Assembly: GCA_963815195.1 (NCBI GenBank)
Contig: CAWFGE010000008.1
Location: 352,001 to 416,000, forward strand
Direction of reading: 5' to 3'
Source of the DNA: an uncultured Planctomycetaceae bacterium
GTDB lineage: Bacteria > Planctomycetota > Planctomycetia > Planctomycetales > Planctomycetaceae
DNA length: 64,000 nt
How positions within the stretch are numbered: the stretch's first letter is position 1; every line of letters starts with the position of its first letter. The translations under genes and the position numbers were made by a program. Positions 555 through 56,982 of the stretch are shown piece by piece. The notes beneath the pieces were generated by a model. It was not told the origin of the DNA. It saw nothing but the letters and a program-made list of their open reading frames with translations, and ran no database searches.

Positions 555-571
555 CATGTTGAAAGGGGTGG
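1..571 (+). mobile_element. IS4-family element, right end at about 571
   Basis: Transposase stop is followed by a candidate terminal repeat CATGTTGAAAGGGGTGG (555-571) that abuts a truncated tRNA. The left IR is not visible. Confidence 0.65.
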
Positions 572-592
572 GTGCCGCTCCCCTACATCCCG
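570..592 (-). pseudogene. 5' fragment of a tRNA (Pro-like), cut by IS4
   Basis: Minus strand reads CGGGATG-TA-GGGG-AGCGGCA-CCC, i.e. a tRNA-Pro-type acceptor 5' strand, U8A9 and D arm, then IS sequence. The anticodon is not visible. Confidence 0.6.
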
Positions 593-602
593 AGTTGTCA
601 AA

Positions 603-692
603 TAGCCCGGACCACGCTGCGGGCGCTGCCCGGAGTCGAACCCGATCCCAACCGAGTTTCGTAAACTCAGTGCCACATCCCGTGGACAGGCC
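603..692 (-). tRNA. Atypical tRNA-Arg(ACG), disrupted by a 22-bp insertion
   Basis: GGCCTGT / D arm CCAC-GGGAT-GTGG / anticodon arm CTGAGT-TTACGAA-ACTCGG / TCGGG-TTCGACT-CC [22-bp insert 610-631] CGGGCT-A. Confidence 0.75.
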
Positions 693-701
693 AGGTTGCA
701 G

Positions 702-771
702 TAGCCCGAAGTGGAGTCGAACCACTCAACCAACCTTCGGAGGGTTAGGGCCAGAATCCGCTGGCCGGGCC
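702..771 (-). tRNA. Atypical tRNA-Arg(CCG)
   Basis: Acceptor GGCCCGG/TCGGGCT, discriminator A; D arm CCAG-CGGATT-CTGG; anticodon arm CTAACC-CTCCGAA-GGTTGG; T arm AGTGG-TTCGACT-CCACT. No U8-A9 linker, no encoded CCA. Confidence 0.8.
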
Positions 772-810
772 ATGATGGTGTTTTTGCTAGTGTTGTTGAA
801 CTTGCCGAAG

Positions 811-883
811 TACCCCGTAGGAGAATTGAACTCCTATCTGCGGATTGAAAGCCCGCGATCCTAAACCGTTAGACGAACGGGGC
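811..883 (-). tRNA. tRNA-Glu(TTC)
   Basis: GCCCCGTTCGTCTAACGGTTTAGGATCGCGGGCTTTCAATCCGCAGATAGGAGTTCAATTCTCCTACGGGGTA folds as a canonical cloverleaf with anticodon loop CTTTCAA. No encoded CCA. Confidence 0.93.
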
Positions 884-37169: not shown

Positions 37170-37429
37170 GCGACCGATTCCGCAAGGAAAATCGTCACGG
37201 GCGGACCGCGGCCATCATGCAAATCGAAGCGCATGCCCTCTGCGGACCCGGTCCCGCGCGGGGAAAACGCCTTAACCCTATCGCAAGGATTTGACGGTTT
37301 GGAGAAACCTTGCCGGTTCTACGGCTTCTTCGGGGACGAAGGCGAGCGTGGGGCGTAAGCCCCATGAACATCCCAAATCAAATCGAGAATCTTAGCCGGC
37401 TCGACTCAAACCCCACCAAAAGGCCATTT

Positions 37430-54777: not shown

Positions 54778-56495
54778 TCATCGGTTTTGCTCCTTTCGAA
54801 GAGCGGATTTCACAAACTTGGAATAACTCACCAGCGGCCGAATGACCGGGTGCTCATCCAGAAACTCGAACTGTGCTTGCACGGGGGCGTTGCGATCGAT
54901 CAACTTGCGAACGGTCTTGAGACGATAGGCCCCATAGGAGTGAGCCGTTTGGCAGGCGAGTTCGATGTCCTCGCGCGAATGCTTGTCGGCCAGTTGCTTC
55001 AGGCCCATCAACACGCGCACGCCTTGAATGCCCCGCGTTTGCAGCATGGCCGCGGCCCAATCCCTGGTTTCCGTGCCGATTTCGCTGACTTTCGCCAGCC
55101 ACCACGCGGCCCCGCGTTCCACGCCGGAGATTTTCCGCGCGTCGAGATGGCTGTTCTGCGTGCTGAAACCTCCCGGCTCTTGGCGGGCGTGCAAAGCGAT
55201 CTGTTCCATCTTGGCATTGAAGATTCGCACCAATCTGCCGTCCCAACGCACCCAGACTTTCCTTCCCATAAATTCCGGCGGCACGGAGTAACACGCCTTG
55301 TCCACGGAGACATGTCCATCACGATGCACGCTCCGCAAGGCTTCATGGAAAAACGGAAATCGTTCCAACGGCAACGGCAACAGTGCCGACCGTTCCCGTT
55401 CGCGAAATGCCTTGCCCACTTGCTCTCTTGTCGTGCCATGAATCCGTGTGTCCGCCACTTGGGATTCCCATTCCCACAGGTGTTCGTTCTGTTCGCGAAG
55501 GCTTCGGAATGTCCGCCCCTTGAGCGCGTTTTCCTGGGCATAATCCACGCCGCGTTCCACCTTGCCTTTGTGTCTCGGCGTGCGAACCCGCGTGGGCAAA
55601 AACACCGTGCCGTAATGCTCGGCGAACGATTGAATCTTGGGATTCAGTTCCGGATCGAACCAATCCGCTTTACTCACGGCGGCACGCAGGTTGTCGATAA
55701 TCAGGGTCTTGGGCACGCCGCCAAAATGCCAGAACGCACTCTCCAAACAGCGAATGAAGCCATCGGTCGTCTGTTTCTCGATCGCTTCCGTGTACCCCTT
55801 GCGACTGTGGCTGAGCACCACCCGCAACAGGTGCGGCCGGCGACGACGACCGCTTTCATTCACGACCGGCGCTCCCTGGCCAAAGTCCACTTGGGCCTCC
55901 GCGCCGGGCTCACATTCCATCCGCCGAAACGGCAACTCCTTCGAAGACTTTAACTGCCGCACGAAGCGCTTCACGCTGTCATAGCCATGCACAAAGTCAT
56001 GGTCATTTGCCAGGTCTTGAAAGATCCGCTGCGCGGAAAGCCCCTGGGCAAGCTTCTCCAAGATCACATCCCGCCAAGGCGCGCACCGACTCCGCGAATG
56101 ATCTTCCTCCTCATTCGAAGACTCTTCTCCAAAAGGCTCCGGGAAATCATCTGTTCCCTCGGACAATTGGGCCTTCGACCAGGTGGGCGGGCACGGTGCG
56201 GAGACAAGTTCCACGTGGGGAAAAGCGTCTGCCGACCCGGTGGGCGGGCACCGCCCGTAGGGTGGTCTGGCCAGTTTTGCCTCCTCCGACCCGGTGGGCA
56301 CTTTGGCCGGTTTTGCCTCCTCCGACCCGGTGGGCGGGCACCGCCCGAAGGGTGGTCTGGCCGGTTTTGAACTGAGATGAGCGGCCACCGTTGAACGGTG
56401 AATGCCCAATTCGCGGGCAATCCTGCGCAAAGACCACCCTTGAGGCGCAAAGCATGAATGGCTTGAACCGTATCCATCGAGAGTTGATTCGACAT
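54778..56495 (-). CDS. istA: IS21 transposase (frameshift at about 56440)
   Basis: MSNQLSM..WSLRRIARELGIHRSTV, PGAEAQVDFG, FGGVPKTLIIDNL, PRHKGKVERGV, YSVP. Confidence 0.9.
56232..56368. repeat. Three tandem 36-bp units in istA, two carrying a 22-bp insert
   Basis: CCGACCCGGTGGGC-[ACTT or 22-bp element]-TGGCCRGTTTTG. Confidence 0.9.
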
Positions 56496-56609
56496 CGCTT
56501 GTTCCCTTCCGAGAAAACTCGAATGAAAACAAAATGCCGAATCCCTTTCCTCTCAAAATGGCCGGTTTTGAACTGCCCACAAGTGGCCGGTTTTCACTGC
56601 CCGGTGACA

Positions 56610-56982
56610 GCCGGTCGAGCAACTTCCGCAGCACCCGCTTCCCAAGGGGGTGGACCTTGAACATCTCCTTGCGGATCTGCCCCAGGTTCCGAAAGTGACT
56701 ACGCGAAATATGCCGGGAGGACGGATACTGCGGGGCCTCGTCACGGGAAAAACCAGAGCCTGGAAGATCCCCAGTTCGCGGGAGCTGCAAACGAGGCTCC
56801 GGCCGCATTTCGAACTGTTCCGAGCGATTTCGTTCCCCCAAGTGGATGAGAACGTTCTCGATTCCGAAAGGGGAACCGCTCGATGAAATACCGCCGGGCC
56901 AAACTGCACACGGTTCTGCAGATCTCCGGACTCGCGGTCGTCGCGTTGGGTGTTTGGGGAACGTACCTCTGGCACGCGACTC
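56610..56982 (+). pseudogene. Two gene fragments (C-terminus of a hypothetical, N-terminus of a membrane protein)
   Basis: An ORF tail ending at 56886 overlaps MKYRRAKLHTVLQISGLAVVALGVWGTYLW, which then joins terminase sequence. Confidence 0.5.

Follow-up and report, generated by a model that had tools for sequence, protein, structure and literature searches.

Repetitive extragenic palindromic (REP) sequences and REPINs, which carry GTAG or CGTC tags, are accompanied by REP-associated tyrosine transposases (RAYTs), enzymes of the Y1 HUH type (PMC3733652; PMC6006769; PMC3116915). REP families have been recorded in small palindromes, as for the GTAG-23 family of T. roseum, or in frame inside genes (PMC3733652). 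Insertion sequences (ISs) of the IS200/IS605 type have hairpin ends that are read on single-stranded DNA (ssDNA), with a tetranucleotide by the hairpin foot and no target duplication (PMC6006769), and the small dispersed repeat (SDR) SDR5 has a specific insertion site, HIP1 (PMC5861425). REPs, SDRs and other very small mobile repeats occur in abundance, but the way in which they insert is largely unexplained. Here, we describe a 22-nt hairpin element that leaves a clean footprint in nine sequence contexts and that lies in a 64,000-nt stretch of DNA (hereafter the window) from an uncultured Planctomycetaceae bacterium (GenBank assembly GCA_963815195.1, contig CAWFGE010000008.1, positions 352,001 to 416,000). 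We consider it somewhat probable that this 22-nt unit, together with its relatives of 18-24 nt, is a non-autonomous micro-element that is copied by a trans-acting exchange of 22 nt for 4 nt, and not merely a conserved sequence. A first-pass annotation of the window had proposed a tiny non-autonomous element that swaps 4 bp for 22 bp, and the copies, the constant gain of 18 nt and the empty orthologs described below support that proposal.

In the window, the element occupies 610..631 on the minus strand, inside a tRNA-like Arg(ACG) pseudo-gene (603..692, minus strand) where it stands in place of tRNA positions 63-66; the minus strand reads GGTTCGACTCC-GGGCAGCGCCCGCAGCGTGGTC-CGGGCTA, with the 22-mer at 631..610. 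We searched the window for this insert with up to three mismatches allowed and found three matches, one at 610-631(-) without mismatches and two at 56246-56267(+) and 56336-56357(+) with three mismatches each, compared with a mean of 0.00 matches expected from 100 shuffles. The two relatives, for which the first-pass annotation had correctly given both the coordinates 55 kb away and the identity of 19 out of 22 positions, lie in the linker of an IS21-family istA gene (54781..56494, minus strand; HTH, rve and Mu-transposase C domains). The copy at 56246..56267 is antisense to the gene and differs from the genome consensus, GGGCACCGCCCGCAGGGTGGTC, at a single position in the loop, and the copy in the tRNA-like gene has two stem differences from that consensus, has lost the canonical hairpin and is slightly decayed. 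As had been noted earlier, target duplications are absent at all three window sites.

We compared filled and empty forms in nine sequence contexts: two tRNA-like genes, two istA sites, four families of repeats and the loop of the element itself. The genomes used were the one that holds the window (G000; 8.87 Mb in 25 contigs), three genomes of the same genus (G001, G002 and G003) and five other, unrelated carrier genomes (G435-G439). The Arg(ACG) tRNA-like gene is filled in G000, and its orthologs in two sister genomes, G001 (flanks 94% identical to the window) and G002 (contig C27), are empty and read GACTCC-CCCA-CGGGCT, so that, judging from these alleles, the window copy is recent. Orthologs without the insert were thus present, as the earlier interpretation implied; it had also predicted that the missing 4 nt would be CGA plus a purine, which came near the observed CCCA without matching it fully. 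The neighboring tRNA-like Arg(CCG) gene (702..771, minus strand) is empty in G000, with ACTT at 709-712, and is filled at the identical spot in G002 (contig C35). For istA, all five paralogs in G000 (81-86% identical) read CCGGCCA-AAGT-GCCCACC on the coding strand where the window gene holds the 22-mer at 56336..56357, and the alignment gap between the filled window copy and the paralogs is exactly 18 columns. The second istA site was judged against a sibling repeat, in a three-unit tandem whose outer units contain the 22-mer and whose middle unit contains ACTT (56300..56303, plus strand), which agrees with the 4-bp empty sibling that had been described before.

The repeat families show the same exchange. 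Among 220 frame matches to family B, 158 contained 4 nt (CCCC in 81 and CCCA in 60), 29 contained the 22-mer and 6 contained 3 or 5 nt; an empty member, GGGCTTACGC-CCCA-CGCTCGCC, lies in the window at 37341..37362 on the minus strand (G000:C8:389341-389362), and this family is a preferred target. Family A gave 233 frame matches, of which 139 contained 7 nt and 17 contained 25 nt (G, the element and CG). At one orthologous family A element (L182), the G001 allele is filled and the G000 allele is not, with an 18-nt gap between them. Longer forms of family A grow by 17-nt steps: direct tandem arrays of the first 17 nt of the element, GGGCACCGCCCGCAGGG, reach up to five units in family A contexts (G000:C13:650484-650573; C4:61809-61864; C16:128130-128185) and probably arose from slippage between CCGCAGGG in the flank and an identical 8-mer within the element. 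In the five unrelated carrier genomes, the palindrome CCCTCTCC..GGGAGAGGG had a 22-nt gap in 154 strand-matches, with all 150 of those listed being the element, and a 4-nt gap, made up of the last stem C and a 3-nt loop, in 1405; gaps of 5-21 nt were mainly ordinary loops of 6-7 nt, plus element relatives of 18-19 nt. The same exchange separates the empty and filled forms of the repeat host CATCCGGCCTTCGGCCACC-TTCT-CCCC, and in nested copies a variant with the stem ACCATGC/GCATGGT takes the place of CGAA, the last stem C and loop, of an outer copy.

In all nine contexts, 4 nt are lost and 22 nt gained, giving a net +18 with no target duplication, and the fixed net length that had been predicted was found in every filled/empty comparison possible. 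The replaced 4-mers differ (CCCA, ACTT, CGCT, CCCM, CNNN, CGAA and TTCT), and because the base 3' of the element is sometimes unlike that of the empty form in families A and B, the exchange can also be read as 5 for 23. We rejected two candidate target rules. A purely structural rule, in which the target is always a hairpin loop, fails at the tRNA T arm, in family B and in the host designated 'h'. The sequence rule C-[element]-YGG, which the first-pass annotation had derived from the three window sites, describes those sites (CGG, TGG and TGG) but fails outside the window, where right flanks read YGC, CGC, GGG and CCC.

The element folds as a GGGC foot, a 7-bp stem (ACCGNCC/GGNTGGT) with a GNA loop, and a 3' C. 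The 5' foot, the first three pairs (ACC:GGT) and the 3' C are constant, and the ends GGGCACC...GGTC are unchanged in relatives of 18, 19, 22 and 24 nt, which vary in the distal stem. The two main forms are one compensatory change apart (C:G to A:T). Positions 9 and 17 are paired in 58 of 63 copies in G000 and in 114 of 116 from other genomes, against 29.7 and 85, respectively, if they were independent, and more compensatory variants were observed. The middle loop base is unconstrained, and since a G.T pair is conserved in the stem, only one of the two strands is able to fold. As an observation in its own right, G000 also contains a canonical GTAG-tagged REP, GTAGGGTGGGCACCGCCCACC, at approximately 13 sites (C15:628395 and C18:295980 among them), often as inverted doublets, and this REP has the 11-mer GGGCACCGCCC in common with the C:G-type element.

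Fixed ends and a stem that co-varies in distant lineages indicate that something recognizes both. A rival explanation is that the sequence is a selected functional motif, for instance a protein-binding RNA or DNA hairpin, instead of a selfish mobile sequence, in keeping with the strong conservation of ends and pairing around a free loop base and with the folding of one strand only. We nevertheless regard this explanation as very improbable, because the copies have no orientation bias to genes, destroy the T stem of tRNA-like genes, sit in a frameshifted transposase gene, match no Rfam family, and are absent from one same-genus genome and from 400 out of 400 sampled genomes of the phylum. The ACC...GGT ends are also inverted repeats, and this, combined with the lack of target duplication, could mean that each 22-mer is a scar left by the excision of a larger element with these ends. 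We give this idea hardly any credence: when the orphan halves in G000 (73 left and 57 right) were inspected by eye, no recurrent longer unit was seen between them, and neither stem co-variation nor nesting under one 4-for-22 rule would be expected of scars.

Exact matches to GGGCACCGNCCGNAGGNTGGTC numbered 63 in G000, 114 and 99 in two other genomes of the genus and 0 in the third, and the reversed pattern that served as a control gave none in G000. When up to three mismatches from either of two consensus forms were allowed, G000 contained 107 copies at 93 loci, so the further genomic copies predicted by the first-pass annotation do exist. Beyond the genus, the distribution is patchy. None of 400 genomes evenly sampled from the phylum had an exact copy, and a scan of the whole collection with one genome per species yielded at least 110 loci; among the 80 that were listed, and from which we took the taxonomy, 76 were in metagenome-assembled genomes (MAGs) of Planctomycetota and 4 in other phyla. 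The listed Planctomycetota carriers are dozens of scattered MAGs from Pirellulales, Thermoguttaceae and Planctomycetaceae. Among the matches listed, we also observed single exact copies in MAGs labeled Gemmatimonadales, Allosphingosinicella, Acidobacteriota and Longimicrobiales (L035, L052, L062 and L079), which could reflect transfer, binning error or chance. Within the genus, every one of the four genomes has empty family B repeats (128, 32, 65 and 50) and only two have family A repeats; filled family B copies are spread over several sub-types, and the commonest loop of the C:G-type element, among the rows listed, is GCA in G000 and G001 and GAA in G002. At several element-bearing loci of G001 and G002, the entire host repeat is missing in G000, from which it follows that the host repeats move as well, taking the element with them.

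In public sequencing data (Logan contigs), the filled allele of the window was found in one run, and no contig had the empty allele, which cannot show that the latter is absent. The best-matching soil run additionally contained a contig with a CCG-type tRNA-like gene whose upstream sequence is like that of the G001 relative, and this sample seems to contain two co-occurring members of the genus. A literature search did not retrieve the sequence of the element, nor anything on it among work on Planctomycetes repeats and hairpins, and Rfam 15 had no family over the element in the window or at 12 loci at E values up to 1-10.

A serious rival to the exchange that we propose needs no dedicated enzyme: short-patch gene conversion or polymerase template switching among GC-rich structured repeats may have spread the sequence between repeats, after rare illegitimate seeding of each context. 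Most copies indeed lie in repeat families, in which filled and empty members have long flanks in common, and in family B a T follows straight after the element in 14 of 27 filled members versus 2 of 158 empty ones, as would be expected if the converted tract extended by 1 nt. In addition, the IS21 target GGTGGGCAC is similar in sequence to each end of the element, and the A-type core has an 11-mer in common with the GTAG-type REP of the same genome. However, the tRNA-like genes, istA and the palindromes have only 1-3 nt in common with the donor flanks, a loss that stays at 4 nt across nine contexts is not what template switching would yield, and fixed ends with a co-varying stem across distant lineages point to recognition by some factor. 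On balance, we consider conversion an unlikely explanation.

The first-pass annotation had identified the interrupted gene as tRNA-Arg(ACG), and it placed the insert correctly, but the gene is tRNA-like only: ARAGORN and the Rfam tRNA model both missed this gene and its CCG neighbor, whether filled or empty, across three genomes of the genus. The sole tRNA that ARAGORN found in the window is a canonical tRNA-Glu(TTC) (810..883, minus strand), which the Rfam tRNA model also called and which, within the window, is the array's first member. In the ACG gene, the element displaces the 3' strand of the T stem, leaving no intact T stem, and the minimum-energy fold of the empty ACG-type gene is not a cloverleaf; the CCG-type copy has a cloverleaf-like fold in which the D arm lies directly against the acceptor stem. 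Both genes (603-771) have zero nt between the acceptor and D stems, and they are up to 94-100% conserved in three genomes of the genus. Elsewhere in G000, for which ARAGORN called 97 tRNAs in all, there are one canonical tRNA-Arg(ACG) and two tRNA-Arg(CCG). The window tRNA genes are the upstream end of an array that runs on at G000:C8:349717-351119, and the genes beside this array are housekeeping genes, with no nuclease among them. An IS encoding a DDE_Tnp_1 transposase interrupts tRNA-Pro(TGG) in this array (window 555-592 and G000:C8:351041-351134). Its inverted ends, ACCCCTTTCAACATG, are 15 bp long, the target duplication, GAGCGGCACCC, is 11 bp long, and the transposase frame is stop-free inside the IS and extends to window 864. 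Because the two 'Arg' genes are uncalled, canonical Arg tRNAs are encoded elsewhere and the array is split by an IS, we conclude that the interrupted 'tRNA-Arg' is a redundant, degenerate spare copy in a decaying array.

Similar insertions were found in other tRNA genes. In six tRNA or tRNA-like genes from four genomes, the element lies at the same tRNA position, straight after GTTCRANTCC. Several copies occur together in the tRNA arrays of a distant MAG (L072), of G435 (G435:C1:683005-686022) and of a 94-kb viral contig (L160), where they are found at anticodon, variable and T-arm positions and in both orientations, with some tRNAs containing two copies or nested ones. Viral contigs gave six single matches in total, one of them within a tRNA array.

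Since the foot and ends are constant and the stem co-varies, we favor a trans-acting enzyme that works on one strand, as proteins read hairpin feet in the REP-RAYT and IS200/IS605 systems. Judging by the anatomy, this enzyme may be an HUH/Y1-type nuclease, or else a nuclease-ligase that cuts 4 nt apart, and we infer that it is dedicated to the element and that its substrate is ssDNA. Such a factor would recognize the foot and hairpin base on one DNA strand and insert a copy elsewhere at the cost of exactly 4 target nt, from which the lack of duplication and the constant gain of 18 nt would follow; staggered 4-nt cuts whose overhangs are removed would yield a loss of this size. It would prefer GC-rich structured DNA as its target: small palindromes at their centers, other REP-like repeats, the loop of the element itself and, in spare tRNA genes of arrays, the T-arm/acceptor junction. 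Many copies would then multiply passively inside mobile host repeats. More tentatively, this may represent an undescribed form of DNA mobility, in which a trans enzyme reads a 4-nt foot and the hairpin base and exchanges a fixed 4 nt of a structured target for a hairpin of ~22 nt; we put this forward as a possibility, and a doubtful one.

Several observations weigh against a trans-acting exchange. We know of no transposition chemistry that removes a fixed 4 nt, the targets have no clear common motif apart from a left C (once G), and the stability of the 22-mer is only marginally above that of shuffled sequences (z -0.7 to -1.0, not significant). Copy number may largely stem from amplification of the host repeats, so that independent insertions would amount to about ten contexts and not hundreds. 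Neither neighborhood nor Y1 ortholog tests tied any gene to the element: copies were beside Y1/RAYT genes at 0 out of 6 loci in G000 and at 1 out of 30 in G435-G439, where approximately 2 are expected by chance, and no Y1 ortholog was common to the carriers at high identity (best 35-52%, patchy). Consequently, the co-occurrence with Y1/HUH enzymes that had been suggested as a check gave no signal. We also observed no orientation bias to flanking genes at the 93 loci of G000 (18 same sense, 18 opposite sense) or among 52 copies in G435 (14 same-sense only, 20 opposite only, 15 without a callable gene and 3 mixed), and orientation did not correlate with GC skew, which was weak or irregular in these genomes with unmapped origins. 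These data therefore do not demonstrate a lagging-strand ssDNA route.

The search for an enzyme bears equally on whether the element is an ordinary REP/REPIN family, serviced by a RAYT (class 2) or a class 3 Y1 enzyme and overlooked through its GGGC tag. Its anatomy, with an imperfect hairpin behind a 5' tetranucleotide, fits such a family, and G000 has six Y1_Tnp matches. Moreover, REP insertion in small palindromes and inside genes is on record (PMC3733652), class 3 Y1 genes are found mainly in Planctomycetes and Acidobacteria, with atypical hairpins (PMC6006769), and the host family B flanks a class-3-like Y1 gene (G000:C13:617065-617625). Nonetheless, no copy of the element itself flanks a Y1 gene in G000 and the 1 in 30 elsewhere is about chance, the carrier G436 has no match to this Y1 protein, copies are mostly single and not inverted doublets, the GGGC tag is unlike both described super-families, and neither a 4-nt replacement nor own-loop nesting is described for REPs in the parts of PMC3733652 and PMC6006769 drawn on here. 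Altogether, we find an ordinary REP family quite unlikely. The Y1 protein in question is 85% identical in G001, where it has an internal stop, and 35% identical in G002, and was not found in G003 or G436. At its locus in G000 (L123, 617007-617999; motifs NHVH...YVRNQ), one empty family B repeat is located 37 nt downstream of the gene, another 6 nt upstream and a third 350 nt away, and this REPtron-like layout suggests that family B could be that enzyme's own repeat.

The istA gene that hosts two copies has further features. Close to the 5' end of the window istA, 1 nt is deleted relative to three of the five paralogs, and the other two share this deletion (window 56400-56494); because it follows soon after the ATG, the conserved frame is not reached from that codon. 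Separately, the IS21 end motif CAGTTCAAAACCGGCCA and variants of it recur in the 5' coding linker (56358-56375, 56270-56285 and 56558-56610), where they encode SKPA.. repeats; from the sequence, the transposase-binding repeats and the coding repeats appear to be one and the same.

If the element does represent an undescribed form of DNA mobility, it would be among the smallest mobile elements known, one that adds whole codons without duplication, and it would work as a programmable 'replace 4 with N' editor of natural origin, with a preference for palindrome tips and the tRNA T arm. Together with the clean footprint, the empty and filled alleles in sister genomes, the nesting and the sharp presence/absence among related genomes open both the chemistry of insertion and the gene behind it to direct search. 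The family further illustrates the inactivation of spare tRNA genes within arrays and the way in which blocks of six codons can be added to proteins.

When compared to known systems, the element does not qualify as a miniature inverted-repeat transposable element (MITE), a derivative of DDE-transposase elements that has terminal inverted repeats and a target-site duplication; no such duplication was seen in the nine filled/empty comparisons, and 4 nt were lost instead. Rickettsia palindromic elements (RPEs) are ~100-150 bp long and confined to Rickettsia, and we know of no 4-nt replacement rule for them. They resemble the element in that palindromic inserts are tolerated in frame in genes (PMC3733652), the element adding 18 nt, or six codons. 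With IS200/IS605 it shares a tetranucleotide beside the hairpin foot and the lack of target duplication, but those ISs insert by a fixed tetranucleotide, remove nothing and have two ends, whereas the element has a single hairpin and varied 4-mers are lost. In Thermoproteales archaea, short introns have spread among many tRNA genes and are cut out by the splicing endonuclease at bulge-helix-bulge motifs. These inserts, too, are short and alike, form hairpins and occupy several positions in many tRNA genes; the element differs from them by also occurring in non-tRNA DNA and by deleting tRNA bases that splicing could not restore.

The first-pass annotation had named RPEs as the closest analogy, but REP elements and the small dispersed repeats of cyanobacteria are closer: by analogy, REPs are the nearest family and small dispersed repeats the nearest concept. 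The latter, from Nostocaceae, were reportedly described by Elhai et al. in 2008 as repeats of 21-27 nt that are thought to be mobile, form hairpins with compensatory changes and are embedded in other repeats. By that description, the element is likewise tiny, dispersed, embedded in other repeats and a hairpin with compensatory changes, in a different phylum and with an unrelated sequence. Like REPs, which are 20-40 nt long, it is short, has a 5' unpaired tetranucleotide and an imperfect hairpin, occurs in tens to hundreds of copies and causes no duplication; its 22 nt, its 7-bp stem with a G.T pair and its 63, 114 and 99 copies lie within that description. In contrast to REPs, its foot is GGGC in all families and not GT[AG]G or CGTC, and its copies do not flank a Y1 gene, whereas REPs form a REPtron around a single-copy RAYT. 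REPs are typically found as inverted doublets or BIME clusters; of the element, only about three inverted pairs occur within 600 bp (107 copies, 93 loci), and its clusters are 17-bp direct tandem arrays. Finally, and also unlike REPs, the element takes out exactly 4 nt, nests in its own loops and favors spare tRNA genes.
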